From positions 30,001 through 62,000 of the forward strand of contig NC_010633.1 of the NCBI RefSeq assembly GCF_000020025.1: DNA of 32,000 nucleotides. The letters are read 5' to 3'. Every line of letters starts with the position of its first letter. Positions within the stretch are counted from its first letter, which is position 1. Both the position numbers and the translations under genes were made by a program. Below are positions 1,140 through 23,417 of the stretch, in pieces. Below the pieces are notes generated by a model, which made no database searches, was not told the origin of the DNA, and saw only the letters and a list, made by a program, of their open reading frames with translations. The DNA is from Nostoc punctiforme PCC 73102 (GTDB taxonomy: Bacteria > Cyanobacteriota > Cyanobacteriia > Cyanobacteriales > Nostocaceae).

Positions 1140-1379
1140 GTGTCACAAAAAGAACTATCTCATACCTCAGCTACGAACAAGCTGCTATTCGCAACTAAAG
1201 CTAATCCCTGTCCTCACTGCGGTAAACCAGACTGGTGCTACTCAATAGGAGAATTTACAGTTTGTGATCGCGATCGCTTTTATCAGCCTAACTATGCACT
1301 GGCTCAACCGGAACAATCGCCAACTTATGTATTAAGCAATAGTCAAAAATTAAATAATGTTCAAGGAGGTATCGCGTAA
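1140..1379 (+). CDS. Small zinc-ribbon protein coupled to the primase gene
   Basis: A GTG start lies 10 nt downstream of GGAGG (1126-1130). A Cys cluster CPHCGKPDWC...C is present. The TAA stop overlaps the ATG of the next gene (TAATG at 1377-1381). Confidence 0.6.
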   Translation: MSQKELSHTSATNKLLFATKANPCPHCGKPDWCYSIGEFTVCDRDRFYQPNYALAQPEQSPTYVLSNSQKLNNVQGGIA

Positions 1380-4300
1380 TGGTTGCACAATTCTCCAATC
1401 AGCAAGCACTCGCCTCCTTTGATATTCGCAATTTTGTAGACCAGTTAGAACCAGCCAGAGAGAAAAATAAATACATCTGCCCAGTTTGCGGTGGGCATAA
1501 TTTATCCATTGTCCAAGAAACTGGGAAGTACAGCTGCTTTAACCAGTGTGAGTGCAAAGACATCCGGGAGGCGATTAAACCTTGGGCTGAAGTCTTAGCA
1601 GAAAGAGCAGGGGTTAATTATACAACTTCCCCAAAAGCGAAAATACCCAACCCCAAGAGAATCTTGCCCAAAAGTGCGCCAATTCCAGATGGTGAATTAG
1701 CACTGGTGATGTTGACCCAAGCGGCGACTGACATACCCCAAACTCAAAACATAACTTGCAAGCTACCAAAGGGAATACCAGGGAATGCAACACAAACAAT
1801 CTACCCTTACGGAAAAACCCAATGGGTAATTCGCTATGAATGGGCGGATTACATCAAAGAGAAGGGTTATGATAAGTCCTTCCGCCAATGGCACAGGCTT
1901 CCAGATGGCACTCCAGAGATGAGAAAAGGGGATGAACCCTGGAAAGCTTACCGCATTGATGAAGCAATTGCCTGTGCTAAATCAGTGAATGTCACCCCGG
2001 CGCTACTCCAGCATGAAGGTGAGGGATGCGTAGAAGTTGGTCGCGCACATGGTCTGGCTGGGATTACGTTTCAAGGCAGTGCATGGGATAAGAAAACAAT
2101 TACCTCGGAATATCAACGCGCAATTGAAGCAGGCATAGGATTAATCGTTTTTCTGCACGATGCTGACGACACTGGCTTAAAGAAACTCCAGACCTGCCAA
2201 GATTGTGCCGACGAGGTGGGGATTGCATTTATTGGAATTAACCCTCACGACATCTGCCCCGATTTACCATATAAATCAAGTGACATCAAAGAAATCTTGG
2301 GGCAGATGGAAACACCAGAATTTATCCGTCGGTTAGAGCAGGAGATTCACGCGGCTGTGGCAAAGCGTGAGCAACTGGCAGAGGTAAACGTCATTGATAG
2401 CGATGATGACCAAAATCCGGTTGTAGCCTTTACCCAGCAAGCTTTTCAAGCTCTCTACGGAGATAAGAACTGGATTTGTGCTGCTGATAAGCTTTACTAC
2501 CACACTGGCAATCATTATAAACACTCCCCAGATTCCACAGAACGCAAAAGAATCTACGACTTTTGCAATTCTTTTGTGGTCGAGAACGAGCAGGGTAAAA
2601 AAACTTGTCCTTATGCTTCGCCCAGTTCAGTCAAAAAGGTTTTGGAGTGGGCGAAAATGGGAACAGAAATTGACCCAGAACTAATTAATCCTCCTGGGGT
2701 AAATTGCACCAATGGGATAGTCAAGGTTGAGTGGGAAGGCAGAAACTTTACAGTAAGACTAGCCCCACATACACCGGAGGATTATTACATTTATGAACCA
2801 TTGATTGAATATAACCCTAATGCTGATGATACATATTGTGAGCAACTTTTAGCTTGTTTAGACAAGCCACAGCAAGAAATATTTCTTAGAAATATTGCTG
2901 CATCCCTTGACCTTCAAACTGTTAGAAAATTCAGAGGGAGAGAGGTAAAAGCAATGTTCGCAATTGGGCTTGGTTCTAATGGTAAAGATGCTCTCCGCGA
3001 GTGTGTATCAACTATTTACGGGAAGAATGGGTTAACTTCTGTCTCCTTGGGTGACTTTCAATCTTATGACGAAGGCAGAAAATTCGGACTAGCCCCACTT
3101 ATATATAGTCGAGTTAATTGGGCTTCTGAAAACCCACAAACATCTAGAATTGACAGACTTCAAAGTTTAAAATTATTTGTCACTGGAGATACATTACACT
3201 GCGAACATAAAGGGAAAGACCATATAGAATTCTCTTCTAACGCAATAGGTATTTTCAACTTAAACGAAACTCCCGCTTTTCAGGGTGTAATACAAGCAAT
3301 CAAAGATAGGATTGCAATTCTAGAATTCAAGAAAACCTTTGTAGATAATCCTTCGCCAAATAATCTAAATGAGATAAAAGGCGACCCCAGATTTCGCTAT
3401 GACCAAGATTTTATTAGAACAAAATTAGCTCCCGCATTCCTAAATAGAATCTTAAAAGCTCTTAATAACCTTATAGAGTCAGGTATCGATTATGAATGCA
3501 CAACCGACGCTTTCCGCAACCTTCAGAGAGAGAATAATCATCTTTTTGACTTCATTGAAGATGAAAAACTGGGTTACGTCGAAGGTGGGGAGATGTCGGC
3601 AAGTGCTTTGTGGATGTTGCTGGAGAATTGGTACATCCAAAATGGCACATTAACTATAGATGAAAACAACCGTAGAACATGGATTGACCAAGTACGCCCC
3701 AGCGACAAAAACGTGAAGGGCATCAACCAAATCATCGCTCGAATCGCTCAACTCTTCCCCAAGGCAGTCAGGGCAACTCGGTACTGTGACATTCGGAAAA
3801 AACAGATTCCAATTCTCAAAGGCATCGGAATTATTGAGAATACCCGCCCCATTATTGAGAATACCCGCCCCATACCCGCCCCACTACCCGCCCCAGAAAC
3901 CCAGTCACAGCAAGCAACCCGCCCCACCCGCCCCACTTTTTCTAATTTTGGAGAAAACATTGAAGAGTCAGATATGAAAATTGAATTGCTTTCTCCGACA
4001 ATGGAAAAAGAGGAATATGTAACCCAAACTGGGGCGGGTGAGGCGGAACCCTTACCAGATAAGGAAATCTGGGGCGGTAACTGGGGCGAAACTGGGGCGG
4101 TTAGCTCCCAAAGTGGGGCGGGTAGCTCCCCAAGTTGTGCGGAAAAGCTAGAAAGTGGTGCGGGTCAATCGGACTCTGTGCCATCTTCTTCTGATTCCAA
4201 GGTTTTAGCCTTTGAAGCGATCGCTTGTATCTTGGAATCCCCTAATCCAAGTTGGGAGGTAATCAAGGATATTTTGAGCGAAATGGAAATCTCTTCTTAT

Positions 4301-4387
4301 TTAGAACTGCACGGGTTTTTGACCTTGGGTGAATTCGCGCAACTTGAGATGCTAATACCAGCCGCCGAGAGGGAGGTTGATCTTTAG
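1379..4387 (+). CDS. Replicative primase-helicase (zinc ribbon + Toprim primase + P4/D5-type SF3 helicase); likely plasmid Rep
   Basis: 1002-aa ORF with a Shine-Dalgarno sequence (AAGGAGG) just upstream. It has an N-terminal CPVCGG...C..C.C zinc ribbon. Toprim-like acidic motifs are present (QHEGEGCVE, FLHDADDTG). A Walker A motif, GLGSNGKD, sits in a context typical of phage/plasmid P4-family primase C-terminal domains. The C-terminal linker is low-complexity (IIENTRP x2, TRPTRPT, GAG-rich). Confidence 0.85.
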   Translation: MVAQFSNQQALASFDIRNFVDQLEPAREKNKYICPVCGGHNLSIVQETGKYSCFNQCECKDIREAIKPWAEVLAERAGVNYTTSPKAKIPNPKRILPKSAPIPDGELALVMLTQAATDIPQTQNITCKLPKGIPGNATQTIYPYGKTQWVIRYEWADYIKEKGYDKSFRQWHRLPDGTPEMRKGDEPWKAYRIDEAIACAKSVNVTPALLQHEGEGCVEVGRAHGLAGITFQGSAWDKKTITSEYQRAIEAGIGLIVFLHDADDTGLKKLQTCQDCADEVGIAFIGINPHDICPDLPYKSSDIKEILGQMETPEFIRRLEQEIHAAVAKREQLAEVNVIDSDDDQNPVVAFTQQAFQALYGDKNWICAADKLYYHTGNHYKHSPDSTERKRIYDFCNSFVVENEQGKKTCPYASPSSVKKVLEWAKMGTEIDPELINPPGVNCTNGIVKVEWEGRNFTVRLAPHTPEDYYIYEPLIEYNPNADDTYCEQLLACLDKPQQEIFLRNIAASLDLQTVRKFRGREVKAMFAIGLGSNGKDALRECVSTIYGKNGLTSVSLGDFQSYDEGRKFGLAPLIYSRVNWASENPQTSRIDRLQSLKLFVTGDTLHCEHKGKDHIEFSSNAIGIFNLNETPAFQGVIQAIKDRIAILEFKKTFVDNPSPNNLNEIKGDPRFRYDQDFIRTKLAPAFLNRILKALNNLIESGIDYECTTDAFRNLQRENNHLFDFIEDEKLGYVEGGEMSASALWMLLENWYIQNGTLTIDENNRRTWIDQVRPSDKNVKGINQIIARIAQLFPKAVRATRYCDIRKKQIPILKGIGIIENTRPIIENTRPIPAPLPAPETQSQQATRPTRPTFSNFGENIEESDMKIELLSPTMEKEEYVTQTGAGEAEPLPDKEIWGGNWGETGAVSSQSGAGSSPSCAEKLESGAGQSDSVPSSSDSKVLAFEAIACILESPNPSWEVIKDILSEMEISSYLELHGFLTLGEFAQLEMLIPAAEREVDL
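3830..3934 (+). repeat. Array of six ACCCGCCCC 9-mers, including a 21-bp tandem duplication at 3830-3871
   Basis: Exact ACCCGCCCC copies occur at 3842-3850, 3863-3871, 3874-3882, 3886-3894, 3917-3925 and 3926-3934. ATTATTGAGAATACCCGCCCC is repeated in tandem. Confidence 0.9.
4031..4165 (-). repeat. Array of the reverse-complement motif GGGGCGG(GT), five to six copies
   Basis: GGGGCGGGT occurs at 4031-4039 and 4115-4123. GGGGCGGT is at 4071-4078, GGGGCG at 4083-4088 and GGGGCGG at 4094-4100. A degenerate GGTGCGGGT lies at 4157-4165. One further GGGGCGGT copy sits at 4467-4474, downstream of the stop codon. Confidence 0.85.
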
Positions 4388-4637
4388 TACTACAAGAGGG
4401 ACTGTCACGGTGATGCCCAATACGAGAGTCAGCCCTGACTGGCGCTCACGTCAAATTAAGGTTTTGGGGCGGTTAGGCGAACTTCTTGACAAAATATCAC
4501 CCCAGATATACATTGCTGAAACTATTACTATAAAAGGATTACAGCCTTAACGAACAATTTCCCCGTTTCGGTGATCGCTTCAATAGGCGATCATACAAAT
4601 TATCCGAAAGTACTAAACTTCAACCATCAATACTACC

Positions 4638-5329: not shown

Positions 5330-6355
5330 TCAACCGAGTAAAATTTTACTTTTTTGCTTACGGCTCAGTAGCTTGCTTGCTCCTAGCGTAGCCCCAAATG
5401 CCAACACAGCTAGCGTCATTCTAGGTTCAGGAATAATAGTGTTGTCTTCAGTGAAAGCTAAAAAGCCAGCCCCATTTAATCCACCTCGACCGGCAGGGAT
5501 AAAGGTGTCAATAAATGCTCCTGTCTTGCCGTCGTAACGCAACACGTTGTTACTATTTAAGCCACTAACATAGAGGTTTCCATCAGGGCCGAAGACTGGC
5601 TTGAGAGGATCGTTAAGTCCTCCACTGCCAGCAGGAATAAAGGTGTCAATAAAAGCTCCTGTTTTTCCATTAAAGCGCGAAATATTGTTACTCACAAAGT
5701 TAGCAACATATAGATTGCCATCTGCTCCAAAGGTCAAACCACCAGGTTCTGAACCTTTTGCCTCTGTAGCAAAAGTGTCAATAAAAGCTCCTGTTTGTCC
5801 GTTGTAGCGAAGAATATTATCCGTTAGAACACTACTGACGTAGAGGTTATTGTCTGAACCAAAGCTCAAACCAAAAGGTGCAGTGAGTCCGCCGCTACTT
5901 GAAGGAACAAAAGTATCAATAAAAGCTCCTGTTTGTCCGTTGTAGCGGAGAACACTATTACTAGTGCGGCTGTTAATACTGGTAACGTAGAGGTTGCCAT
6001 CAGGCCCAAAAACTAAGTCTTCAGGTGCATCTAGTCCACCACTACCAGAAGGAACAAAGGTACTAATGAAATTCCCTGTTTTTCCGTCGTAACGTTGGAT
6101 ACTACCGTTCAAAATACTGCTTACATAAAGATTATTATCCGGCCCAATAGTTAAACCAGTTGTTCCCTGTAGTCCTCCACTACCATTCGGAACGAATTCA
6201 TCAATGAATTCTCCCGTTTTTTCTTCGTAGCGTAGGACGGAGTTATTGTTATAACTCCCTACTAAAAGTGCTGCGTTAGCTCTTGGGGCTATCCACCCTA
6301 GCAATGCGAAGCTTATCAGTGGGACACCGATCTGACAAAAATTGAAAAACTTCAT
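5330..6355 (-). CDS. Six-repeat NHL-like beta-propeller protein with signal peptide and PEP-CTERM sorting tail
   Basis: There are six ~47-aa repeats (N.vLRY.G.TGaFIDtF.P.GSGGL...FGPDGNLYVs). An N-terminal signal peptide is present. The C-terminus reads IPEP, then a hydrophobic helix, then basic SRKQKSK, which matches the PEP-CTERM pattern. Confidence 0.85.
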   Translation of the reverse strand: MKFFNFCQIGVPLISFALLGWIAPRANAALLVGSYNNNSVLRYEEKTGEFIDEFVPNGSGGLQGTTGLTIGPDNNLYVSSILNGSIQRYDGKTGNFISTFVPSGSGGLDAPEDLVFGPDGNLYVTSINSRTSNSVLRYNGQTGAFIDTFVPSSSGGLTAPFGLSFGSDNNLYVSSVLTDNILRYNGQTGAFIDTFATEAKGSEPGGLTFGADGNLYVANFVSNNISRFNGKTGAFIDTFIPAGSGGLNDPLKPVFGPDGNLYVSGLNSNNVLRYDGKTGAFIDTFIPAGRGGLNGAGFLAFTEDNTIIPEPRMTLAVLAFGATLGASKLLSRKQKSKILLG

Positions 6356-6829
6356 AATTTTGTTAGCTAACAGAACTATAATTACTTAGTATACTTAATC
6401 ATACATTCGTAACATTTCTGTTATTAATTCAAGTTGCTAGTTACGCAGATAAGCAATCTTGAAAAAGAGAGAGTATAGATTTATTTTTGTCAATATGTCT
6501 ATCAGTAGAAATAAATCTACTAACACAATATAGGACTCATATTTGATTTTTGAAAAAAGGTAAAGGGAAAAAACCTTATATATCGAGCCTTCCAAAACTA
6601 CGATATTGGCTTAAGGGGGCAATACTTGGGTCATAGTGGCAGCATAGTGCAAAGGGTGAAATGAGCAGTGATACCCCTGACTGTCTTATTGTTATATCCT
6701 TTATTCCAAATAAGCAGAGGAAACTGGACAAAGGGAAAGACACAGACAAAATTCTGTCACTGGTGAATGAGGAATTCTGTATTTTTTCATCCTTATGCTA
6801 TTCGTGCAAGAGGTCTATTTATCAGTCGT

Positions 6830-6871
6830 CCAATACCCAATACCCAATGCCCAATGCCCCATGCCTAATCG
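6830..6871. repeat. STRR-like heptamer run (CCAATAC / CCAATGC / CCCATGC), six units
   Basis: Directly visible tandem heptamers: ccaatac ccaatac ccaatgc ccaatgc cccatgc ctaatcg. The run abuts the stop codon of the substrate-binding-protein fragment. Such runs are typical of heterocystous cyanobacteria. Confidence 0.7.
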
Positions 6872-8040
6872 GTTACTTTCAATTCATAAAGATTCCAAAA
6901 TGGGCCACCAAGAGCAGTATATTGAATTCCTTGGAAGCGATCGCGCACTGCTTGCAGATTCAACCCCTCCACTAAATGAATAAAAGGCAACTGTTCTGAG
7001 GCAATGCGCTGATATTCATAATAAATTTCCTTGCGCTTGTTTTCATCCAATACCTGTGCGCCTTTAATGTAAAGCTTGTCAATTTCCTTTTCCCAGTCGG
7101 AAACTTCCCAGCCAGTCATGGGTGGATCTCCCGGTTGTGGCCCCAAATTAAATGCGTGGGATGCACCGGCAATTCTCCATATTTTGCTAGCGCTGTGAGG
7201 TTCAATACCGCCTCCAGCAAATCCTCCCAGGTAACAATCCCAATTATGCGTCACTTTGAGTTTTTCTAGATAAGAATTAAAGCTGAGAATTTGCAAATCT
7301 ACTTGAATCCCAATATTACCGAGATCCCGTTTGATTTGAGATGCCATATCTCCTCTAACTTTTCTTTCAGAATTAGTTAAGATTGTAAATCTTACTCTGT
7401 TACCATCAGCATCTAAAAGCTGATTTTGGGCATTATATTTGAACCCAGCTTGTAACAGCAATTTCTTCGATTTATCTGGTTCACAATTATATACCTTTAA
7501 CCCTTTTTCTGGAGGCAAGAAATAGGGACTTTTGACATAAACAAATGAATTTTGTAGTTCACCCAGTCCTCGATAAACATTTGTTTTCATGGTTTCGCGG
7601 TCGATGGCGTAGGCTATAGCTTGCCTGAATTCCTTTTTATTAAACCACCTAGATTTGATTGGGTCTACAAAAGGATTACCCTGAGAATTCTTAGCTTTAC
7701 TCAGATTAAAAGCAATAAAACCTGTACTTGTATCTGGGCCACCATTATAAATTTCAAACTTCGCCCGTTTTTCTTCTCGCTTCAACAAACTAAAACCTTC
7801 AGGAGGAACTTCTAAATTATCCAACTGCCCAGAGCGAAAACTAATTAACTGATTTTCAGTAGATTCAATAATTTGCCAAACAATACGCTCAATGTAAGGC
7901 TGAGAATTGCCCTGAGCATCTTTGCGCCAGTAATATGGATTACGCCGAAATATAACTCGCTGACTGGAAACGTAACTTTCCATAATATATCGCGTAAACC
8001 GGACACTACCAGCGAGAATAAATGAGGTTGCCACCCCCAA
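6865..8040 (-). pseudogene. 5'-truncated ABC transporter substrate-binding protein (family 5, peptide/nickel type)
   Basis: The translation carries the typical ...SQRVIFRRNPYYW... core and a C-terminal lobe. Family-5 binding proteins are ~500-600 aa with a signal peptide, but only ~390 codons remain here. The reading frame runs into the recombinase gene, so the first ~15 codons are probably fortuitous. Confidence 0.7.
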
Positions 8041-8624
8041 CTCGTCTACCCAACAAACATTACAGGTCTAGAGAATACCTTACACCAAGTGAAGTGCGAT
8101 CTCTACTCGATGCTGCGCTCGATCGTAAAGCTCGTTATTCTCACCGTGATTATACACTGATGTTGCTCATGTTTCGCCACGGTCTGAGGGTGGGGGAAGC
8201 TGTAGGGGCTAAGTGCGGTTTAAGGTGGGATGCAGTAATGTGGGGCGAACGTCAGATTTTTATCACTAGGGAAAAAGGCAGTGACTCTGGGGTGCATCCC
8301 TTGAGAGACGATGAATTAGTTCTCCTCAAAGAACTCAGAGAGATGTTGCCTGATAGCAAATATATTTTCGTTTCCGAACGCGGTGAGGTGATGTCCACTG
8401 ATGCAGTGCGAAAGCTGCTTGGGCGGCTGGCGGCACAGGCTGGACTTGATATCAAAGTTCACTGTCACATGATGCGCCATGCCTGCGGCTACTATCTGGT
8501 GAATCAGGGTTACAACACCAGAGAAATCCAAGACTTTCTGGGACACCGCGATATCAAACATACTGAAAAATATACCAAGCTGAATGCTCGACGCTTCCTT
8601 AATTTTGATTGGGGCGATTTGTAA
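8022..8624 (+). CDS. Small tyrosine recombinase, FimB/FimE-like in size and layout
   Basis: 200 aa. Candidate catalytic residues are R in FRHGLRVGEA, H..R in HMMRHACG, and GHRDIKHTEKY with the nucleophile Tyr. Length and N-terminus (LTPSEVRSLLDAA) match the ~200-aa fimbrial-switch-type recombinases. Confidence 0.85.
   Translation: MRLPPPTRLPNKHYRSREYLTPSEVRSLLDAALDRKARYSHRDYTLMLLMFRHGLRVGEAVGAKCGLRWDAVMWGERQIFITREKGSDSGVHPLRDDELVLLKELREMLPDSKYIFVSERGEVMSTDAVRKLLGRLAAQAGLDIKVHCHMMRHACGYYLVNQGYNTREIQDFLGHRDIKHTEKYTKLNARRFLNFDWGDL
8521..8624 (+). repeat. Copy A of a 104-bp direct repeat (3' end of the recombinase gene)
   Basis: Aligns with 11016-11119 with about 13 mismatches by my count. Weaker homology extends back to 8496 (codons LVN). 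Confidence 0.9.
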
Positions 8625-8856
8625 AAACTTGTGAAAATTTTCTTCATAAAAAGAACAAAACAGAATAATTAAGGCTTTTGTTAGACAAATGTATTATGCT
8701 ATGTTGTGCTAGTTAACTTAATTTGGCATAAAAGGGTATTAAATATCTTAATTTTTGGTTGTTTTATTTAATAAATTAGTAAATATTAAACCTGCTAATT
8801 GCATTTAGTTAAATAAATTAGCAATTTTTCAGAGTTAATCTAAATGAGGTAATGAG

Positions 8857-9906
8857 ATGCAAACCTTTCAACTAATTGAAGATTTTGAGTTTTTACAAAA
8901 ATTGCTAGAAAAAGACGAGAATAAATTAGTATTTGAATGGCTGTTTTTTTTGGCAGATTCAGAAATAAATGAAATTTTGAAATCAATTGGAGATTCTATT
9001 GACGAAGGAAATAAGGGATCTGTCGGCAGCGCTCAACTCTATACAAGAAGTTTGATCAACCAAATAAAATTACGTATAAAACCTAAAGTTTTTTTTAGCT
9101 CATTTGAAATACTACAAAAAGATTACATTTCATTTCTAAAAACAATAAACCCAAATAGTGAAATAGAAAGTTATATTCGTTCTCAGTTTTCCCTATTAGA
9201 AGAGGCATACGAAAGATTTATTGATAATTATGATTATAATTCAACTGTCAATTTAATTACTTGTGCAAAAGTTCTTGTAAATATCCTATCTACTTTTAAC
9301 GAAGTTAATAGTTTTCTCATTAAAAATCTTCAACAAACTTATGATTTTGAACTTGATGAAACTTTAAATTCTTTTTCTCTTTTTATAGATTCTGATTATA
9401 CATTTAAAGAATTTATACAAAAACTAGAAGCTATTCAAGCACTGTATTCAGAATTATGCTTTCTTTATGATATTTCTGAGGTTGATTTTCCTCTAAGAAT
9501 AATTAAGATAGAATCTGGGAGTTTATGGGTTAAAATCTTTGGAGAATCTCGAGTTATAGAGACAATTGTATCTTTAATAAAAGACGCTAAGGAATATGGC
9601 TATAGAAACTTAACTAAAGAGGGAAAGATTGAAGCAGAGCAGCAAAATTTTAAAGCTATAGAATCAGCTTTAGAACTTAGAAAAAAGTTACAGGAAGCTA
9701 ACATTGATGTTGAAGAATTTGATGAAAAAATAAAAAAAAGTTCTATTGTAATCATAAACAATCTTAATACTCTTTTGTCTGGTGAAAAGAAAATAAAACT
9801 AAATGGTGAATTAATAGAATCAGATGACACAACTCAAAAACTTTTAAAAGGCAGTAACAGATATTTACTTGAAGGTTCCAAAGATGCTACAGAGGACAAT
9901 GAGTAG
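8857..9906 (+). CDS. AT-rich orphan protein (349 aa), no recognisable domain
   Basis: The ATG is preceded by GAGG (8846-8849). It is a long uninterrupted ORF in a region much more AT-rich than its surroundings. It appears helical/coiled-coil rich, with no P-loop and no catalytic motif I can name. Confidence 0.7.
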   Translation: MQTFQLIEDFEFLQKLLEKDENKLVFEWLFFLADSEINEILKSIGDSIDEGNKGSVGSAQLYTRSLINQIKLRIKPKVFFSSFEILQKDYISFLKTINPNSEIESYIRSQFSLLEEAYERFIDNYDYNSTVNLITCAKVLVNILSTFNEVNSFLIKNLQQTYDFELDETLNSFSLFIDSDYTFKEFIQKLEAIQALYSELCFLYDISEVDFPLRIIKIESGSLWVKIFGESRVIETIVSLIKDAKEYGYRNLTKEGKIEAEQQNFKAIESALELRKKLQEANIDVEEFDEKIKKSSIVIINNLNTLLSGEKKIKLNGELIESDDTTQKLLKGSNRYLLEGSKDATEDNE

Positions 9907-9971
9907 CTTAACTAGAAATAATCAGGTGTCCAAACGTCGTAGGCTATGGATCACAGGGTCTACAGTCAACG

Positions 9972-10085
9972 ATGAAAATTAATCGGCATGGTCGCGCCAA
10001 GGTTCTTACACAATCAGAGATACAGCTAATTTTCAGTCACGGCTTGGACAATGACCGTGATCGCGGTTTATGTCGGGATTTGATA
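9972..10085 (+). pseudogene. Possible N-terminal remnant of a different tyrosine recombinase (37 codons)
   Basis: It translates to MKINRHGRAKVLTQSEIQLIFSHGLDNDRDRGLCRDLIV*. The start resembles the N-termini I recall for cyanobacterial site-specific integrases (MKINRHG.A..L...E...L). It stops prematurely. Confidence 0.35.
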
Positions 10086-10195
10086 GTTTGACGACATCAC
10101 ACGAAAAGCGCCGACTGTAGAGCATTCAGTCCCAGATTAACCTGCAAAAGCGCGATGGCGTACCCGCCCGCTGGAAGCGATCGCTCTGACGGCTA

Positions 10196-10891
10196 ATGCT
10201 GGTAGATACAGTTGCTAATTCCCAGTACCAAGGTGTATGCTGTTACACAAACTGTCTGCCAGTCAGACCGCCGACTATGACCAAACTAGACCGGGTACCA
10301 GTCGCCCAGCTTCCCGATAAATATGGGATTGTTAAATCTGTTATCTACGATCGGATCAATAGGTTAGGCATCAAGCCAACCAAAATCGGCAATAAGTCTT
10401 ATGTCAGTGGAGAGCAGTTAGAGTTACTTGACCAGCTAGATGCTCACATGAAAGCGGGTGGCAGCATGGCAGACTTTGCCGACCAATACGCCAGACAGTC
10501 CGGGGGTCAGTCTGAGCATTTTGATTCTGGCATAGAGTCTGCCAGTCAGCCTGACGGTCAGTTAACAGTCGCCGGACTAACCGCCAGTCAGTTCGGCCAA
10601 CTTTCGCAAGTGATTGAAGGGTTAGTGACACGGCTGATTCCCGCCATTGTCCGCCAGCTTCCAGTATTGGCTTCTGACCCAGTTGCCCATTTGAGGGCAT
10701 TGGAAGAAGCTTATAAAAATGGTTGGCTACTCAGCACTCGTGAACTGGCGACTTTACTAAAATTGTCTCCCTCTACAGTTTGTAGGTACGGTTCAAAGTT
10801 TGAAGACGCTGGTTTTGTGTTTACCAGGGCAGGACAAAGGAAGGGGGGAGAAGTGGCTTGGTCAGTTGGAAAACAGAGAAAATCTAAATAA
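10196..10891 (+). CDS. Putative DNA-binding protein with two HTH-like segments
   Basis: 231-aa ORF. An internal ATG at 10277 (MTKLDRVP...) is a more plausible start. HTH-like stretches are AQLPDKYGIVKSVIYDRINRLGI and STRELATLLKLSPSTVCRYG. G+C content is normal for the window, unlike its neighbours. Confidence 0.65.
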   Translation: MLVDTVANSQYQGVCCYTNCLPVRPPTMTKLDRVPVAQLPDKYGIVKSVIYDRINRLGIKPTKIGNKSYVSGEQLELLDQLDAHMKAGGSMADFADQYARQSGGQSEHFDSGIESASQPDGQLTVAGLTASQFGQLSQVIEGLVTRLIPAIVRQLPVLASDPVAHLRALEEAYKNGWLLSTRELATLLKLSPSTVCRYGSKFEDAGFVFTRAGQRKGGEVAWSVGKQRKSK

Positions 10892-11002
10892 GTATTAATT
10901 GTGGTCGTTAAACAAATTACTCGTGCTTATAAAAAAAACTGTAAGCAGATTTCGAGTACTTTGTTCATCCTCCACTAAAAGCACTGTGCTGATTTATCTT
11001 AA

Positions 11003-11119
11003 TTAGTCAACGTCAGAGAAATCCAGGACTTTCTGGGACACCGTGATATAAAAGACGCTGAAAAATACACCAAGCTAAATGCTCGACGCTTCCTGAATTT
11101 TGATTGGGGTAATTTATAG
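11003..11119 (+). pseudogene. Orphan 3' fragment of a second FimB/E-like recombinase gene (copy B of the direct repeat)
   Basis: It encodes LVNVREIQDFLGHRDIKDAEKYTKLNARRFLNFDWGNL*. The intact gene reads LVNQGYNTREIQDFLGHRDIKHTEKYTKLNARRFLNFDWGDL*. A stop codon lies immediately upstream at 11000-11002. Confidence 0.85.
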
Positions 11120-11190
11120 TATTCCATTTTTTATAATATAGTTAGCTATAATTAATATTAAAATTATCAATTTAAAATTGTAGATTTTTT

Positions 11191-12177
11191 ATGAAGTGCA
11201 TTATATGTAAACAAGATAAGCCTAATGAAAATTTTAGTGAAGAGCATATATTTCCTGATAGTATTGGTGGAAATATTAAACTAAATTGTGTTTGCAAACT
11301 ATGTAATGATTTTCTTGGACATTCAGTAGATTCATTTCTTGTTAATCATGATTTTGTTAAATTGTACCGTCTTATTTTAAAGATACCTGGAAAATCAGGA
11401 GAAATTCCAAATCCGTGGAAGGAAGTGTATCTTACTGAGACTAACGAAAAAATTCAATTTATATTCGATAGGGATGGTAATCCTCAAGGACTAAAAACAT
11501 TTACCAAAATTCAGAAAAATTATATAGATAATAAATTAGAATTAAAAATCCAAGCTGACGCAAAAGATAAAGATATACTACCAGGAATTATTAATAAAAA
11601 ATTAAGAAGAGATGGGTTAAATCAATTAACCGAAAAAGAAATAGAAAAAATTATAAATCCTCAATCAATCATTAGATATCGACCACAGATTTATAAAAAA
11701 TTTTCGATTGATTTATTTCTTTATAAACGTGCAATTATAAAAATTGCATATGAATTAGCTTATTATTATCTTGGTTCTACTTACCTAAATGATGAAATGG
11801 GGGAATTGTTGCGGTTGACTATTAAGGATAAATCTCCAGAAGGAAAGCAATTAACTAAATATCCAATTGATGCTTTTATTGAAATTTCAGGAACAATGTT
11901 ATTTCCTTATTTTAAGAATGAACATGAGCATCATATTGCTATAATAAAACGACATAAAGATTGTCTAAAGTGTTACATTAGTATTTTTGATGTTTTTCAA
12001 AGTATAATTACTGTTAGTAATGATGCAAATCTATATCAAAATTTTAAAGATAAATTTATAGCAATTAATGCTAAAACAAGAAAATCACGACAATTAGAAC
12101 TTGAAGAAGAACTTTTAAGGATAGCAAACGAAATATGTGGCACTACTTCTAGTTTTGAATTATCTGCTGATTTTTAA
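11191..12177 (+). CDS. HNH (His-Me finger) endonuclease-domain protein with a ~250-aa uncharacterised C-terminal region
   Basis: The N-terminus reads CIICKQ...EEHIFPDSIGGN...CKLCNDFLG (CxxC...H...N...CxxC). The gene is very AT-rich. The remaining ~250 aa match nothing I recognise. Confidence 0.75.
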   Translation: MKCIICKQDKPNENFSEEHIFPDSIGGNIKLNCVCKLCNDFLGHSVDSFLVNHDFVKLYRLILKIPGKSGEIPNPWKEVYLTETNEKIQFIFDRDGNPQGLKTFTKIQKNYIDNKLELKIQADAKDKDILPGIINKKLRRDGLNQLTEKEIEKIINPQSIIRYRPQIYKKFSIDLFLYKRAIIKIAYELAYYYLGSTYLNDEMGELLRLTIKDKSPEGKQLTKYPIDAFIEISGTMLFPYFKNEHEHHIAIIKRHKDCLKCYISIFDVFQSIITVSNDANLYQNFKDKFIAINAKTRKSRQLELEEELLRIANEICGTTSSFELSADF

Positions 12178-12403
12178 ATGCAAAGATATAGGCATTACCG
12201 TGCCAGAAAAGGTTTTTTGTACGCTAAGAAAAATTATGAGCTACGACCGCGCAACGACTCTGCTCGGTCGGGGCTTTTTCTGCTTTGTATGGCTCGCGCG
12301 TCAAAGACATGAATGAAGCGAGAAGAGTTTGAGACTCTAATTCCACGTAATGGCTCAAAGGTGTAATACGATTTCTTACTAAAGATGTTGTTCTTTAGGG
12401 TGG

Positions 12404-12447
12404 CAGTTAGGTCGAGGGGGAGTATTATCTCCCCCTCGACCTAACTG
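12404..12447. repeat. Perfect 18-bp-stem hairpin
   Basis: CAGTTAGGTCGAGGGGGA (12404-12421), an 8-nt loop, then TCCCCCTCGACCTAACTG (12430-12447). Confidence 0.8.
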
Positions 12448-12580
12448 ATACCCAGCTCCTGCTAACAATGATTATCATTATTATTATGTTAATAATTCAT
12501 CTTTAAAAGTCCGTTGGGAGTACGGTGTCCTCCAACAATTCACAATCATACCTTGAGCATTCAATATTCAATATTTAGAT

Positions 12581-12697
12581 GCGTTCGCGCTGTTCTGCTT
12601 TTTGGGAGACGCTACGCGAACGCTGCGCTAACAGCAGTTACGCTCGTTCGCTCTTAGTGTCTCCCCTTGGGAGAAGGCTCGCTAGCGTTGTGCTAAC
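12581..12697. repeat. Cyanobacterial dispersed-repeat-like GC-rich palindromic block
   Basis: GCGTTCGCG (12581-12589) pairs with CGCGAACGC (12615-12623). 'gctacgc.aacgc' style motifs are also seen at 5102-5140. The block sits in an otherwise AT-rich spacer. Confidence 0.4.
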
Positions 12698-12932
12698 ACC
12701 ATTTCTGCTTCTGAAAACGCAACTGTTTTGTAAATTAACTAAGTGTTTTTGTATACAAATATTGTAACTGCCAATTACTACTTTTGTAGTATCAATTTAT
12801 TGAAAACCTAAGACTATTGGAAGAATACAAGTAATTTTTTTTTAACTACAACTCTAAGCAATAGAAGAGTTAGAACAAATCAATTTGTCCCAACTTTGAT
12901 AATTAAAAGACATACAGCAAGCACAAGAGGCA

Positions 12933-13448
12933 ATGGTCATGAGTACGGTCATGAACCAACGGGTCAAAGTTGAAAAGACTTTAACCATTAACAAACCAGT
13001 AGATGAACTTTATCGCTTTTGGCGTAACTTTGATAACTTGCCACGCTTCATCAAGCATCTCAAAGAGGTGAGGGTATACGACGAGAAGCGATCGCACTGG
13101 ATTAGCAAAGGATTCTTAAATGAAAGCGTTGAGTGGGATGTAGTCATTACCGAAGACCGAGAAAACGAATTGATTGCCTGGACTTCGGTTGAAGGCGCAG
13201 CAATTGAAACCTCTGGTCGCGTCCACTTCAAGCCAGCACCTGGGAATCGTGGCACTGAGGTAAAAACAGTCCAAGAATTTACCCCGCCTGGGGGTGCGAT
13301 TGGGGCTGCGTTGACGAAGCCCCTCGCAGACATTGCTAAATTATTTGGTGAAGACCCAGAACTGCAAATTAAAGAAGATTTACGCGGCTTCAAAATGCTG
13401 ATGGAAGCAGGCGAGATTGCCACAACAGAAGGTCAACCGCGAGGTTAA
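12933..13448 (+). CDS. SRPBCC-superfamily (cyclase/dehydrase-like) protein
   Basis: 171 aa with AGAGG upstream. The pattern [24 protein letters not shown]...........W......VEWD..ITED.ENELIAW is typical of SRPBCC ligand-binding proteins as I recall them. Confidence 0.75.
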
Positions 13449-13459
13449 TAAATATTGCT

Positions 13460-13861
13460 ATGAAAGCTGTTTGTTGGTACGGCACTAACGATGTGTGGGT
13501 GGAAACAGTGCCAGACCCAAAAATAATTAACCCCCGCGATGCCATCCTCAAAGTTACATCAGCAACCATCTGCGGTTCTGACTTGCATATCTACGATGGC
13601 TACATCCCGACGATGGAACCGGGTGACATTATTGGTCACGAGTTTATGGGAGAAATCGTTGATATTGGCAATGAAGTCAAGAAATTGAAAAAAGGCGATC
13701 GCGTTGTTGTTTCTTCCATGATTGCCTGCGGTCACTGCTGGTATTGCCAACAGCAGATGTGGTCGTTGTGCGATAACTTACCCCTAACAGAAGCCAAGCA
13801 TGGCTTCGAGCTGTTCAACCAAAGAAAAGACCACTGCATAAAAGTTAGGTTACAGCCTTGA
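13460..13861 (+). pseudogene. Internally deleted paralogue of the downstream Zn-dependent dehydrogenase
   Basis: The first ~105 aa parallel 13947..15122 ([25 protein letters not shown]...CGSDLH.Y.GY.PTME.GDI.GHE.MGE.V.IG). After ...WSLCDN it jumps in frame to [27 protein letters not shown], which matches the last 27 aa of the full-length gene. The Rossmann domain is absent. Confidence 0.75.
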
Positions 13862-13910
13862 GTTGGGGACTCACAAGAGCAGGGGAGCAGAGGAGACAAG
13901 GAAAATAACC

Positions 13911-13938
13911 ACTGACAACTGACAAGTAACTACCGACA
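13911..13938. repeat. Short heptamer run (cactgac aactgac aagtaac taccgac)
   Basis: Four tandem 7-mers are visible between the two dehydrogenase genes. The run is STRR-like. Confidence 0.5.
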
Positions 13939-13946
13939 AAGGACTA

Positions 13947-15122
13947 ATGGCTATGAAAGCAGTTTGCTGGAACGGTGCCAACGATGTACGGGTAGAAACA
14001 GTACCCGATCCAAAAATCATTAATCCGCGTGATGCTGTTATTAAAATCACGACAACAGCAATTTGCGGTTCTGATTTACACCTTTATAACGGCTACGTCC
14101 CTACAATGGAAAAAGGCGATATCCTGGGTCATGAAATGATGGGGGAAGTCGTTGAAATAGGTAGTGCCGTCAAAAATTTAAATATAGGCGATCGCGTGGT
14201 TGTACCATTCCCTATCGCCTGTGGTAACTGCTGGTACTGTCAACATGACTTCTGGTCATTGTGCGATAACTCTAACCCAAACGCTTGGTTAGCAGAAAAA
14301 TTCATGGGTTATTCACCCTCTGGTATTTTTGGCTACTCTCATATGCTAGGTGGCTACGCTGGTGGTCAAGCTCAATATGCCCGCGTTCCCTTTGCCGATA
14401 CTGGTTTGTTTAAGATTCCTGATGGACTAACAGACGAACAAGTAGTGTTTTTAACAGATATCTTCCCCACCGGATATATGGCGGCAGATAACTGTAATAT
14501 TCAGCCCGGTGATATTGTCGCAGTCTGGGGGTGTGGCCCAGTCGCACAATTCACAATTAAGAGTGCTTATCTACTTGGTGCTGAACGAGTCATCGCTATC
14601 GATCGAATTCCCGAACGCCTACAGATGGCTAAAGATCAAGGCAAGGCAGAAATCCTTAACTATGAGGAAGTAGATGTTGGTGAAGCCCTCAAAGAAATGA
14701 CAGGTGGACGCGGCCCAGATGCTTGCATTGATGCTGTGGGGTTGGAAGCACACGGCACGGGTCTAGAAGGAGTATACGACGAAGTAAAGCAAGCAGTGCG
14801 TCTGGAAACAGACCGGCCCCATGTGCTGCGGCAAGTGATGATTGACTGTCGCAAAGGCGGTCACGTGTCAATTCCTGGTGTTTATGTCGGCGTTGTAGAC
14901 AAAATACCTATGGGTGCTGCCATGAACAAAGCCTTAGTATTCAAAATGGGACAAACGCACGTTCATAAGTACTTAAACACGTTACTCGATCACATCCAAA
15001 ATGGCAGGATCGATCCATCTTTCGTGATCACCCATCGTCTACCGTTAGATGAAGCACCCCGGGGTTACGAAATTTTCAGAGACAAGAAGGAAAACTGTAT
15101 CAAAGTTGTACTCAAACCATAA
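13947..15122 (+). CDS. Zinc-dependent alcohol / formaldehyde dehydrogenase family (MDR superfamily)
   Basis: 391 aa. Catalytic-Zn motifs are CGSDLH and GHE. The structural-Zn cluster is [15 protein letters not shown]. The Rossmann motif is VWGCGPVA. Confidence 0.9.
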
Positions 15123-15134
15123 GGCAGGAGAAAA

Positions 15135-15184
15135 GACACGGAGAGTGGGAGACGCAAAGACGCAAAGAAAGAACTCTCCGTGTC
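15135..15184 (+). terminator. Hairpin after the dehydrogenase gene
   Basis: GACACGGAGAG (15135-15145) pairs with CTCTCCGTGTC (15174-15184). This is an 11-bp stem with a 28-nt loop that contains GACGCAAA twice. There is no strong T-tract. Confidence 0.35.
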
Positions 15185-15284
15185 CTTCTAATCGATGATA
15201 TCTCTATCGGGTGATGGGCAATGCAGGAATATCCCCAGGCACTCTCACTCTTGGTGCCTTAGTTCATACACTTGGGGTTGTTAT

Positions 15285-15336
15285 GGTATTGAGCCGAGAT
15301 GCACAACTTTCACGTCGCGCATCTCGGCTCAATACC
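15285..15336. repeat. Solo hairpin built from the MITE terminal 18-mer
   Basis: GGTATTGAGCCGAGATGC (15285-15302) pairs with GCATCTCGGCTCAATACC (15319-15336). It is the same 18-mer, with one mismatch, as the termini of the element at 15371-15788. Confidence 0.8.
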
Positions 15337-15370
15337 GTGTAGGTGTTTTACTTGAGCTTTCATTTCAAAT

Positions 15371-15788
15371 GGTATTGAGCCGAGATACAAGTAAAAAGCA
15401 GCAAGATGGTCTGGAAACTCTTGCTATATATAGGGTTCAGGCATTTTTAAGTAAAATTGGCTCTATAGCGTAAATCTTGGGTATGTATCGCTACAAGAAC
15501 TAGAGTTTTTATTAATTTTATTTACAGGTTTTACGGGTTGAACGATGAATATCTTTCGCAGTAAAACCCCTGAAACTCTTACAGGCAATGAATTATAGCC
15601 CCAAGTATTAGCCTCCTACCACAGAGTATTTATAATTCTCTTTGGTAGGCGAAAAGCAAATATGGGGTCAGAAGTGCCAGTGCATTCATGCACAAATTCT
15701 CATTAGATATGAAAAATAATAGAACGTATATATAGCAACGCTTTCCAGACCATCTTGCAGGTTTTTACACGTATCTCGGCTCAATACC
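15371..15788. mobile_element. MITE-like non-coding element (~418 bp) with ~62-bp imperfect terminal inverted repeats
   Basis: The left end (15371-15432) is GGTATTGAGCCGAGATACAAGTAAAAAGCAGCAAGATGGTCTGGAAACTCTTGCTATATATA. The right end (15727-15788) is its reverse complement with a few mismatches. The interior has further hairpins and no credible ORF. The element lies between convergent genes. Confidence 0.55.
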
Positions 15789-15837
15789 TTAAGGACTTCA
15801 AGCCCTTGCTGTACCGTGTTAAATAGCTTCAAATTAA

Positions 15838-18800
15838 TTAAAAGTCTAGCAAATCCACAATTGTCTTGACCAATATCTCTGGTTCCACAGGTTTTGTAAT
15901 GTGGCCTTGGAACCCTGACTGAAGCGCTTTTTGCCGATCAAAGTCCCTCGCATAAGCGGTCACGGCGATCGCTCGAATTGTTCCTCCTTGATGGGGTGGG
16001 CGGGAGCGAATTTGCCGTATCAGCATATAACCGTCCATCTCAGGCATACCGACATCGCTGACCAGGAGATCAGGAATGAATCGATCTAGCACTTGCAATG
16101 CCTCCAAGCCAGAAGCAACAGCAATTACCCTCGCTCCACTTTGCTCCAGCAAAAATGCTTGAAACTCGCGGGTATCCGTATCATCATCCACCAGTAGAAT
16201 TTGCAGATTACTTAAAGGATTTTTCGTCTTTTCTGCTTTAGCCTGAACAAGTTCAGCTATAGTCGGGATTGTCTGCTGAATGACGGGCAGTTGTACCGTA
16301 AAGATCGCGCCTCGATCTTCACCTAAACTCTCTGCCTTGACCGTTCCCCCATGCATTTCTACAATTTGTCGCACAATCGCCAGCCCTAACCCTAATCCAC
16401 CGAATTTACGGGTTGTGGTGGAATCTGCTTGACGGAAATACTCAAACACATACGGTAGGAACTGCGGATCGATTCCTTTTCCGGTGTCACTCACCCGAAT
16501 CTGAGCCAATTGATCGAGTTGTTTCAGTTCAACGATGACTTGTCCACCTCGAGGAGTGAATTTGACGGCATTGGTAAGTAAGTTCCACACAACCTGCTGT
16601 AAGCGGTTCGCATCGCCCGAGACATAGGATACTGTCGTGCTAAGGTCAAGCAATATCTGAATGTTTTTGGCTTCTGCTGCCAAACGCACCGTTTCGATTG
16701 CCGCAGAAATCACAAAGGTCAAGCTAATGGGAGCCGCTGTTAAAGTCAGCTTGCCCTGCATGATGCGGGAAATATCGAGCAGGTCTTCGATCAGTTGCGA
16801 TTGTAGTTTGGCGTTGCGCTCGATCGTTTTCAAAGCTTCAGTTTGCCGAGGTAGATCGAGTTTGCCGTTTTGTAGCAACCGTATCCAACCCAAAATCGGG
16901 TTCAAGGGCGATCGCAACTCGTGCGAGAGTACTGCCAAAAACTCATCCTTGATCCGGTTGGCGCGGTCGGCTTCCGCTCGGGCGGCTTGTTCGCGGACAA
17001 GGAGTTGTTCCCGTTCCGCCTCAATGCGTTTTTGCTCAGTGATATTGAGTACAGTGCCAACAAAACGTTGTGGGTTCCCACCTGCATCAAAGTAAGCCTG
17101 TCCTCTTGCTGCAATCCACCGTTCCACCCCATCCTCAATCCCAATCGTCCGATATTCTACGTCATACTTGCCGCTGCTTGCTGGGTTCAAAGTCCATTGT
17201 ACTGCCTGTTCTAGTCGTTGGCGATCGTTAGGGTGCAGCCCTGCAAAAAAGACCTCAATGCTGCTTTCGGCTTGTGGTAGTAACCCAAACATGGCTTTAC
17301 AACCCTCATCCCAAATCAATTGATTGGCGATCAGATTCCAGTCCCAGGTGCCTAATTGGGCGGACTCGATCGCCATGCGAAAGCGGTTTTCACTGTCGCG
17401 CAAGGCTGCTTGGGTCTGCCGTTGCTCAATCAGGTCAGCAGCTTGACGAGCGAGTAAATCGAGAAACCGCAACTCGCGATCGCTGGGTTGGCGGTACTCT
17501 TGCCAATGCGTGGAAACCATGCCAATCGGTTTACCAGAACGGGCGATCAGCGGGGTGGACTGCCCAAAGAAGTATCCAGCCTCCACATGTATTCGCAATG
17601 AACCATCAGGGTCTTCGCTCTCCGGCACATCAAAGTCAATGAAGGTGCGATTGCCATTTTTGAGGGCGATGCCGCAAGACGTGTTAGAACTGGCATTCAC
17701 GCGGTGAAAATACTCAGTCAGGTTTGGCTCAAATCCCTGCGTGGCAAGCAGCACCAAGTCTTGTGTTGCGGTATCGAGAATTTGCACAGTTCCGGCATCT
17801 GCCCCTGTAAGCACGATAGCGGTTGCCATAATCTCGTCATAAAGTACCTGAATATCGGTTTCGTTAGTGAGTTGCACGCTTAGGCCATGCAACAGTTGTG
17901 TATCTCGAAGGTCGGCTGCAATGGCTGCTTCTGCCTGTTTATGATCGGTAATATCGGCAAGCGCACCGGGAAACGCAATCGAGTTGCCTGCGGCATCATA
18001 TTCAACCTGCCCGCGTGCAGTGAGCCAACGCTCCTCGCCAGTGGCAGTATGAACGCGGTATTCAGCCGTATACTCCTCTCCCGTCTCGATCGCCTGCTGG
18101 ATGGCGGCTGAAACGCGAGGACGGTCTGACTCATGTATCGAGTTGATAAAGAACTCGATTGGCAACCCTGCCGTCGTTGCGTCTGCTGGGTCTACGTTAA
18201 ACAGGTGAGCGAAGGCAGCATTGACAACAACGCGATCGGCCGGAATGTTCCAACGCCAGGTGTAGACTGATCCTGCCGCTAAAGCAGACTCCAACTGCAC
18301 ATGGGCTGATCGCAGCACCAGTTCTGCTTGCAGGCGTTCGGCTTCTGCTTGTTTAAAATCGGTAATATCTCGTGAAATTGCCACCAGTTGCACAACCTGT
18401 CCAGACGCATCTCGCACAGGTGTGATCCGGCTATCCCACCACTTCGGTGTGCCCTTGGCAGTCACGAGATAACCTTGGAATTGTCCGATGTTGCCCAGGG
18501 TGGCAGCCGCTAAAGCAGCTTGGGCATTCTCGTAATCTTCGCCCTGCCAGCGATCAACCCAAATTGTATTCAAGATAGAAGTCGGATCATCGATTTCCAA
18601 GAGACACAGCCCACCGGGACTGATGTAGACGATTTCGCTGTTCAACGTTAAAACTTTGATGCAGTCTCTACTGCTGTCCAGAATGCGTTGCTTTAGCTCC
18701 TCAGATTCGCGTAGGGTAATTTCTGTTTGCTGACGCTCTAGTTCTATCGCAATGCGATCGGCGAAGACTGTTAGCAACGATTCTGCTAGATGCACATTCT

Positions 18801-19731: not shown

Positions 19732-19947
19732 ATTTTAATGAAGGCGCTGTATCTGGCGTTTAGTAGTGGAGTTTCTTCTCCTACCCAAACTAATCACAAA
19801 GGTTTAGACACTCTCATGTTACCTTGCTCGTCGAGACTTCAACTCTGATGAGTAACCGAAAAACCTATAGCCGCTTTACGGAAGTGTAAATCTTTCCACA
19901 AGCTCACACGACAGCTTGTAAATAAATGTTTAACTCAGTGGAAAATT

Positions 19948-20142
19948 ATGAATAATATTAACCAAATCATTTTAGAACATCTGCGTTCTGGGGGAAAAAC
20001 TTCTGGAGAATTGAAAGATTTGTCTAATTGTAGTTACAGCGTCCTCGACGAGGCTTTGCGCGAACTGATTAATGCTTAAGAGATTGAACTAGGATGGAGT
20101 AACGATGATTGCCCTGTGAGAATTTACCAACTCAAGCGCTAA
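19948..20142 (+). pseudogene. Small winged-helix-like ORF interrupted by an in-frame TAA
   Basis: The translation is MNNINQIILEHLRSGGKTSGELKDLSNCSYSVLDEALRELINA, then TAA at 20077-20079. The same frame continues EIELGWSNDDCPVRIYQLKR* to 20142. Confidence 0.3.
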
Positions 20143-20330
20143 TATTGATGATTTTCTAAAGGGATTTCTCACAGCGAAGCTGCCAATAGAAAACCCTGGA
20201 AAGATGCTAACTCTATCGAGATTGCAATTTATCCGGGGTTGTAAAGTATCTATTTATGTCTCATCAAAACGTAAACTTATCAAGGATTTAAGTCGGCTAG
20301 GTGATTATTGTAGAATTTTCTAATTTGAAG

Positions 20331-20633
20331 TCAAGCACTGTCTTGCCATTCGTTCTTAGAAATAGTTAATTCTTTTGGCTGACACTGTAAAATCTGGAAC
20401 CGAATTTCTTGATTACCCTCCTGTTCTAGATCCTCTATATAGCCAGGTAGGAACCAGTAAGCCTCCTTTGGACTAATAAAAGGGCCAAAGTAGTAAGTAC
20501 AGTTAGGATGATTAGTGATAATTTCTATCCACCAAGCAAATTCAGACGGTTCCTGTTTTAAATTATGTGTCAATTTCATAGCAACCTTTGCAAGTTCAAG
20601 ATATGAGATTTGACTGATAATGGTTTCAGACAT
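20331..20633 (-). CDS. DUF1816-like cyanobacterial protein
   Basis: 100 aa. The core WWIEIITNHPNCTYYFGPFISPKEAYWFLPGYIEDLEQEGNQEI matches my recollection of the DUF1816 signature (WW.EI.T..P.C.YYFGPF....EA.....GY.EDL..EG). Confidence 0.7.
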   Translation of the reverse strand: MSETIISQISYLELAKVAMKLTHNLKQEPSEFAWWIEIITNHPNCTYYFGPFISPKEAYWFLPGYIEDLEQEGNQEIRFQILQCQPKELTISKNEWQDSA

Positions 20634-23413: not shown

Positions 23414-23417
23414 TACG

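Follow-up and report, generated by a model that had tools for sequence, protein, structure and literature searches.

Why does a Nostoc plasmid carry the end of one recombinase gene twice? We address this question for a stretch of 32,000 nucleotides from Nostoc punctiforme PCC 73102 (contig NC_010633.1, positions 30,001 to 62,000; hereafter the window), which to judge by its gene content is part of a mobilisable Nostoc plasmid. On its forward strand lies an intact gene for a tyrosine recombinase (8022-8624), and the last part of this gene recurs downstream of a variable stretch of DNA. A preliminary description of the locus read it as two tandem modules, each a recombinase tail followed by an AT-rich cargo gene. 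It proposed either site-specific insertion into the 3' end of the recombinase gene, the repeats being attL/attR-like, or serial stacking of recombinase-linked cassettes. Our comparison with related plasmids points to a different origin. The second copy is what remains of another, diverged allele of the recombinase gene, a decaying 3' end left in a mosaic plasmid, and it probably arrived there when related replicons or segments were joined and part of the product was then deleted.

The repeat itself is real and slightly longer than the 104 bp first claimed. A repeat search pairs 8513-8623 with 11008-11118 (111 nt, 87% identity) as the only long direct repeat in the region, BLAST of the window against itself returns it at 87.4% over 111 nt (E 2.3e-33), and a MAFFT alignment recovers the same 111-nt block. 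Copy A (8513-8624, forward strand) is the recombinase gene's own 3' end, within which lies the region of the presumed catalytic tyrosine, HTEKYT. Copy B (11008-11119, forward strand) is a non-coding 3' remnant that spans codons 164-200 and the stop codon. The preliminary description was right that B keeps the reading frame and the stop (TAG, 11117-11119) and is cut off by a stop codon upstream, an in-frame TAA at 11000-11002. Copy B has no in-frame ATG, GTG or TTG, and no forward-strand open reading frame (ORF) is listed there. Partial homology, an absent start codon, an upstream stop and private non-synonymous changes together mark B as a pseudogene fragment. The spacings to the next genes also stood up, at 232 bp from copy A to an ORF of 349 aa (starting at 8857) and 71 bp from copy B to an ORF for an HNH protein (starting at 11191), as did the AT-richness of both ORFs (GC 0.23-0.30, compared to 0.48-0.51 in the recombinase gene). 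Inside both tails there is a terminator-like hairpin with a T-run on the minus strand (8574-8592 and 11067-11089), the conservation of which is probably a by-product of coding conservation.

The origin of copy B can be read from its differences from copy A. Related loci are labelled L0xx here. A recombinase scan of one genome per species yielded 79 loci; BLASTN against these loci found full-length recombinase copies in 52, at 79-93% nucleotide identity. Copies A and B differ at 14 positions, which amount to nine synonymous and four non-synonymous codon changes. Their 87% identity falls within the allele-to-allele range of 71 aligned alleles (median 89.7%, 5-95% range 82-94%). At eight of the 14 positions the state found in B segregates among the intact alleles, and at 8561, 8600 and 8615 the majority state is the one in B, A having the minority state. 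The clear amino-acid replacements, namely H>D and T>A in the motif DIKHTEKY and a D>N, are all private to B. The nearest relatives of B are the alleles of L007 and L030 (~89-90%), compared to only 87% for A, and the bases that follow the stop of B ('tattcca') belong to a class found after intact genes in L010 and L076. Because the differences are mostly synonymous, many states segregate elsewhere, the replacements are private and the start codon is missing, B is not a duplicate of A but a decaying 3' end that stems from another, diverged allele. It was once under protein-level constraint in a working gene of another lineage, was later truncated and is now decaying.

Two genes that flank or separate the copies belong to the plasmid backbone. 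Proteins 84-99% identical to the recombinase are encoded on many Nostoc plasmids, some of them 98-99% identical, and the recombinase gene is a backbone gene of small Nostoc plasmids. The same holds for the gene of normal GC content between the two tails, which the preliminary description had correctly listed as a helix-turn-helix (HTH) gene (10196-10891, forward strand, 231 aa; its matches to HTH models are weak only). It sits in a block (10070-10907) that is 87-97% identical in L003, L023, L030 and L074, in each case 1-3 kb downstream of the recombinase. The DNA between recombinase and HTH gene differs entirely in these four plasmids, and none of them has a tail copy after the HTH gene. In L023 the HTH gene is followed by a relaxase/MobC block, and in L003 the sequence of window positions 20186-20277 begins 60 bp past it. 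Since the HTH gene adjoins this sequence elsewhere, some 9.3 kb of the window (10908-20185) is additional relative to the L003 backbone, and copy B is close to the left end of this DNA. It starts 100 bp inside the segment, which contains 100 bp of unique sequence, tail B, the HNH gene, a hairpin element, genes for an SRPBCC protein and an ADH, and a hybrid histidine kinase gene. Within it, 12485-15160, with the SRPBCC and ADH genes, matches large plasmids of Nostoc and Trichormus at 97% identity. The preliminary description had suggested checking relatives for the presence or absence of 8625-11015. With a backbone HTH gene inside it and a backbone that resumes at 20186, not at 11120, this tail-bounded interval is not gained or lost as a unit. 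Short-read contigs 99.8% identical to the window have an unchanged arrangement, and no polymorphism was seen in them.

The left part of the interval has relatives of its own. Between copy A and the HTH block lies a cargo segment (8625-10129, forward strand) with the 349-aa ORF (8857-9906) and, at 9921-10091, the 5' remnant of a gene for a second small tyrosine recombinase. This is the remnant of a different integrase type named in the preliminary description, and it does exist (9972-10091). The block 7975-10129, comprising the recombinase gene, the 349-aa ORF and the integrase remnant, is common to L048 at 91% identity, and L035 has a longer version of the integrase remnant (~19450-19800) that continues through a box-I-like ...LFSACRIRECCTL.... 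Elsewhere the 5' remnant of this second recombinase family recurs, cut at nearly the same point (after ...GLDNDR), and many plasmids have it immediately ahead of the palindromic site described below; in L012 and L014 it lies 140-280 bp before the recombinase gene.

How a second allele end came to lie behind a backbone gene is most plausibly explained by fusion and deletion. Two related plasmids or segments, each with a recombinase gene and its own downstream gene, would have been joined in the same orientation by cointegration or segment insertion. A deletion would then have taken the upstream site of the second copy together with the first ~490 bp of the gene, so that tail B came to adjoin unrelated DNA ~100 bp beyond the HTH gene, with its own cargo, the HNH gene, still behind it. 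Disabling amino-acid changes would have accumulated in B afterward. Gene remnants in mosaic or cointegrate plasmids are alike in that a truncated second copy of a backbone gene stands in direct orientation, with allele-level divergence and foreign cargo adjacent; unlike them, the fusion proposed here is one that we infer from a 32-kb window. The earlier idea of stacked recombinase-linked cargo keeps part of its force, as B together with the HNH gene does resemble the remains of a second unit of this kind, but fusion or segment exchange with deletion is a likelier route to this arrangement than insertion of cassettes at the tail.

Several observations weigh against this history. Zero matches were obtained with the 100-bp stretch that separates B from the HTH block, which leaves no way to reconstruct the deletion junction. 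A DNA pattern, a metagenome protein scan and the contexts of HNH relatives revealed no intact B-type allele with the HNH gene behind it. Fusion would also be expected to leave a second set of backbone genes in the plasmid, of which the analysis covers the 32-kb window. In L012, L013 and L021 a degenerate ~24-bp copy of the extreme tail abuts the recombinase stop and precedes the cargo (e.g. cattttgactggggggatttat, 18/24), and these echoes hint that exchanges near the tail end may recur. Finally, in 88% of locus pairs homology ends within 5 bp of the recombinase stop, a sharpness greater than we can fully explain.

A more convincing candidate for a recombination site than the tail lies at the other end of the recombinase gene. 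The conserved block that the window has in common with other loci starts consistently at 7975-7979, with a 33-bp palindrome (7975-8007; 7-bp inverted arms around 19 bp) that ends 15 bp before the ATG. Its motif, [AG][CG]TGTCC-N19-GGAC[AG][CG]T, occurs as a single copy per locus in ~60 loci at a constant position (e.g. L009 8576-8608; consensus ACTGTCCATAATATAGCGCGTACACCGGACACT), and the arms are retained even in a copy of the locus with just 69% nucleotide identity. In the window the site is a hybrid. Its left 16 bp come from the chromosome, from a gene for a substrate-binding protein (SBP), and the 17 bp on the right from the plasmid; the left arm departs from the consensus (ACTTTCC). The SBP gene fragment (6832-7990, minus strand) is the 3' two-thirds of a gene for a peptide/nickel ABC-transporter SBP. 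It covers positions 121-360 only of the Pfam SBP_bac_5 profile, ~200 N-terminal codons are gone, and the 1.16-kb fragment ends 33 bp beyond the stop codon. Full-length relatives are ~596 aa and chromosomal. Homology of the SBP DNA stops at 7990 in all three loci compared, L084 (98.9%), L086 (93%) and L085; the L086 homologue is on a 577-kb contig beside AIRC/Lyase_1 housekeeping genes. The overlapping 16 bp, ACTTTCCATAATATAT, belong to the SBP gene by origin and agree with the left half of the plasmid site at 15 of 16 positions.

With chromosomal homology up to 7990 and plasmid homology from 7975, the chromosome-plasmid junction falls inside the palindrome. In L024 the left arm has been replaced too, with the junction in the AT-rich centre. 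Because a captured piece of the chromosome is joined to its left half, the palindrome is likely a recombination site, and we consider it the likely target of the recombinase. The plasmid site may have recombined with a chromosomal look-alike, after which imprecise excision would have captured 1.16 kb of host DNA. Alternatively, the hybrid junction could have formed by illegitimate recombination via 16 bp of microhomology. A single site per plasmid suits multimer resolution or cointegration, and what these plasmids have is indeed a single conserved palindrome next to the recombinase gene. The palindrome could double as a promoter or operator. Two types of upstream flank were considered as independent swaps at the site, an idea that was dropped when the flanks proved to be diverged homologues.

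The palindrome gives the strongest of the alternatives its basis. In that alternative, units of site, recombinase and cargo, or whole plasmids, integrate in tandem at the upstream palindrome and the older copy is trimmed to tail B; it differs from fusion followed by deletion solely in taking the enzyme's own site as the joining point. It is in keeping with a conserved single palindrome at the left edge of every copy, with the chromosome-plasmid junction inside the site here and the replaced left arm in L024, with the shared orientation and order of A and B, and with the recombinase fragments that lie downstream of intact copies in L005 and L014. However, the window holds one site, and no second palindrome or half-copy of it (attR-like) lies downstream of the cargo. 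The HTH backbone and 100 bp of unmatched DNA separate the two units, and homologous recombination within a 650-bp gene would yield the same tandem order. We consider stacking at the palindrome possible but unlikely.

The recombinase itself is a minimal enzyme. The intact protein has 200 aa, the size of FimB or FimE, and consists of the catalytic domain only (PF00589, E 5e-36, 124 bits against a cutoff of 27.1 bits, residues 19-189); no Pfam match to an N-terminal core-binding (SAM-like) domain was found in it. Its best NCBIfam model is 'tyrosine-type DNA invertase', at about half the cutoff of that model. The invertases FimB and FimE (NF007370/NF007371) resemble it in length, in domain content and as the best-scoring NCBIfam models, but the scores are far under the cutoffs (128.8 and 117.5 bits, compared to 221 and 222). 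In contrast to those enzymes it is encoded on a plasmid beside a single palindromic site. Paired inverted sites around an invertible segment were not seen, as there is one palindrome per locus within 10 kb in ~60 loci. The best Xer model scores 96.5 bits (cutoff 220) and the integron-integrase model TIGR02249 scores 50 bits (cutoff 265). We found no literature on this recombinase.

Among site-specific systems, the single-recombinase Xer systems offer another comparison. XerS/difSL and archaeal XerA/dif each combine one recombinase with a site next to its gene. The Nostoc locus resembles them in having one palindromic site immediately upstream, in that archaeal XerA and an XerC-like protein are the nearest solved structures, and in its likely role in multimer resolution. 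Unlike them, the recombinase has no N-terminal core-binding domain and sub-cutoff Xer scores, and its site has 7-bp arms 19 bp apart rather than an 11-6-11 layout. Lambda-type specialised transduction and F-prime formation are cases of integration at a secondary site with aberrant excision, which the hybrid, half-chromosomal site and the captured fragment of an adjacent gene resemble; here, however, the event is read from sequence, and the 16-bp microhomology could also support illegitimate recombination. Plasmid pdif modules lie between several XerC/D sites of the same plasmid and depend on host Xer proteins, whereas the Nostoc plasmids have one site each and encode the enzyme themselves. The likeness, as far as the account of Acinetobacter pdif modules in PMC9455709 bears on it, is that accessory genes are shuffled among related small plasmids with tyrosine-recombinase sites.

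The DNA after the recombinase stop codon is highly variable. Among 1227 pairs of full-length loci, homology ends no more than 5 bp from the stop in 1082 and extends more than 50 bp past it in 11. The first downstream ORFs are distinct in 50 of 57 cases, and GC content is usually lower downstream than in the recombinase gene. A sample of 20 downstream ORFs included defence-like proteins (a Cap4-type nuclease, NACHT/STAND NTPases, TIR plus Mrr, ResIII and PIN_12), the maintenance proteins ParA and a ParM-like protein, and a histidine kinase, an epimerase and an orange carotenoid protein. Similar boundaries occur at other genes of the family. At the stop of the HTH gene every plasmid diverges within 0-17 bp, and at the primase gene homology never leaves the gene. 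These controls indicate that sharp gene-end junctions are family-wide and not caused by the recombinase tail, and they led us to reject a site-specific origin of the sharp boundary at the stop codon. The view of the locus as a variable hotspot that gathers foreign and possibly defensive genes thus holds for the variability, the sharp ends and several defence-like cargoes, but these features belong to a family-wide mosaicism and not to the tail.

One could nevertheless propose a dedicated gene-capture platform, in which a minimal recombinase, its 33-bp upstream site and a slot that begins right at the stop codon, with frequently defence-like cargo exchanged by a site-directed process, work together. 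If this were true, tail B and the ~24-bp echoes would be scars of successive captures, and the system would be integron-like with a different geometry. Integrons (IntI, attI, attC) likewise place a tyrosine recombinase beside a highly variable gene slot. Unlike in integrons, no attC-like repeats surround the cargo here, and the cargo follows the recombinase stop rather than lying at an upstream site. We consider such a platform quite improbable.

The reading of 8625-11015 as an element inserted site-specifically into the recombinase 3' end, bringing a replacement tail, fares worse still. The repeats are direct and in frame and bracket a mosaic segment of 2.4 kb, and mostly synonymous differences could in principle suit a functional replacement tail. 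The gene enclosed between them, however, is a backbone gene that occurs in relatives without a second tail, and B is an independent allele. A and B share perfect runs of 17 bp at most, from which we judge frequent homologous deletion between the tails unlikely, and no inverted-repeat core was found within the tail; the only conserved palindrome is the one upstream. In the loci of other strains no second tail end was found within 10 kb (last 24 bp, up to 5 mismatches), which leaves the window strain as the only one with two. Truncated recombinase copies are frequent in other strains, with no common position for their inner breakpoints. Tail fragments begin at 8255, 8310, 8349, 8361, 8376, 8393, 8396, 8402, 8427, 8450, 8477, 8493, 8502 and 8506, and head fragments end anywhere between 8228 and 8494. 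A shared breakpoint for tail-only fragments was rejected on the spread of their starts (8255-8513). Some truncations are plain insertions, such as that of an IS5 in L004. We found no sign that the tail has a role as a recombination site, and the attL/attR reading seems to us very improbable.

Debris of the recombinase gene is common among Nostoc plasmids in general. Internal fragments lie downstream of an intact copy in L005 (5175-5260) and L014 (11119-11315). Further internal or head-only fragments, near an intact copy or downstream of one, are present in L003 (1477-1640) and L094 (8424-8909).

Two further explanations are hardly credible. Tandem duplication of the recombinase in place, with decay of the intervening sequence, would give copies on the same strand in direct orientation 2.5 kb apart, but it is ruled out by states of B that are found in other plasmids and are absent from A, and by the closer relation of B to L007 and L030; moreover, the intervening DNA is homologous to cargo and backbone of other plasmids, not decayed recombinase. 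Retention of the tail for a function on the HNH gene, as promoter, leader or terminator, might be suggested by the 71 bp between B and the HNH start, a weak promoter-like match at 11113-11142 and the hairpin conserved in both tails, but promoter-like matches number 14 where 16 are expected from shuffled sequence, HNH relatives elsewhere lack such a tail upstream, and coding conservation explains the hairpin.

The preliminary description called the two AT-rich genes orphans, which they are not. The 349-aa protein is one of an uncharacterised family, with 686 representative relatives (E<=1e-3) and Y197, P212, E219, G221, G229 and G256 invariant, and the HNH protein has 26 besides itself. The former lacks a PADLOC or PHROG family, and Pfam gave no more than a sub-threshold match. 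Its predicted model is mainly helical (pLDDT 78), and none of the PDB folds matched it at E<=0.001. The HNH protein (11191-12177, forward strand, 328 aa, AT-rich) has an N-terminal HNH_5 domain (PF14279, E 2e-17), which was its only Pfam match, and PADLOC returned none. Relatives at 30-59% identity are scattered over replicons in Nostoc, Clostridium, Bacillus, Acidiphilium and a methanogen plasmid, and the neighbourhoods in L093, L095 and L097 are unrelated. A defence role of either gene is possible.

Other features of the extra 9.3 kb were noted along the way. The hairpin element (12384-12454) has arms of 25 nt at 12398-12422 and 12429-12453, which are 92% complementary. It also occurs in L094 (4983-5053) and partially in L007, L039, L054 and L059, and it has no Rfam match; an Rfam search of 6000-21000 returned zero matches. 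Just upstream of the full ADH gene lies an N-terminal ADH fragment (13454-13788, an ORF of 133 aa) that is 74% identical to 13947-14282, another partial gene duplicate within this DNA. A 62-bp inverted repeat (89%; 15371-15432 and 15727-15788) lies between a 92-aa ORF and the end of the histidine kinase gene. Beyond the segment, the conserved non-coding element 20186-20277 is 91% identical to L003 10068-10158 and in relatives has the HTH gene on one side and the relaxase region on the other; it could be an origin-of-transfer-like sequence.

The remainder of the window has the gene set of a mobilisable plasmid, with a D5_N/DUF5906 primase (1379-4387), a MobA-type relaxase and MobC/NikA (20960-23843, minus strand) and a ParA-like protein. 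Nostoc plasmids of 29-40 kb are piecewise collinear with it. Just 3' of the primase gene is a conserved non-coding element (4404-4497; 87-95% in L011, L012, L024, L048, L055 and L094), which recurs separately from primase homology. The relaxase gene contains tandem repeats (21600-22332, 68-84% identity), with similarly repeated matches in L023 and L030. Inverted repeats of 51 bp (96%; 27017-27067 and 28783-28833) bracket a 556-aa ORF (27117-28787), and together they look like an insertion sequence.

The picture that emerges of this plasmid family is one of conserved backbone genes separated by almost wholly unshared cargo, among which nuclease, NACHT, TIR and PIN proteins are numerous. The repeat that raised our question is an ordinary gene remnant in a mosaic plasmid, and annotating it as an attachment site or cassette boundary is unwarranted. 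The natural junction at the upstream palindrome suggests that a plasmid and a chromosome once recombined at a look-alike site and that a fragment of a host gene was picked up. The family carries a widespread, uncharacterised minimal tyrosine recombinase with a testable candidate site, which might serve as a compact recombination tool for Nostoc.

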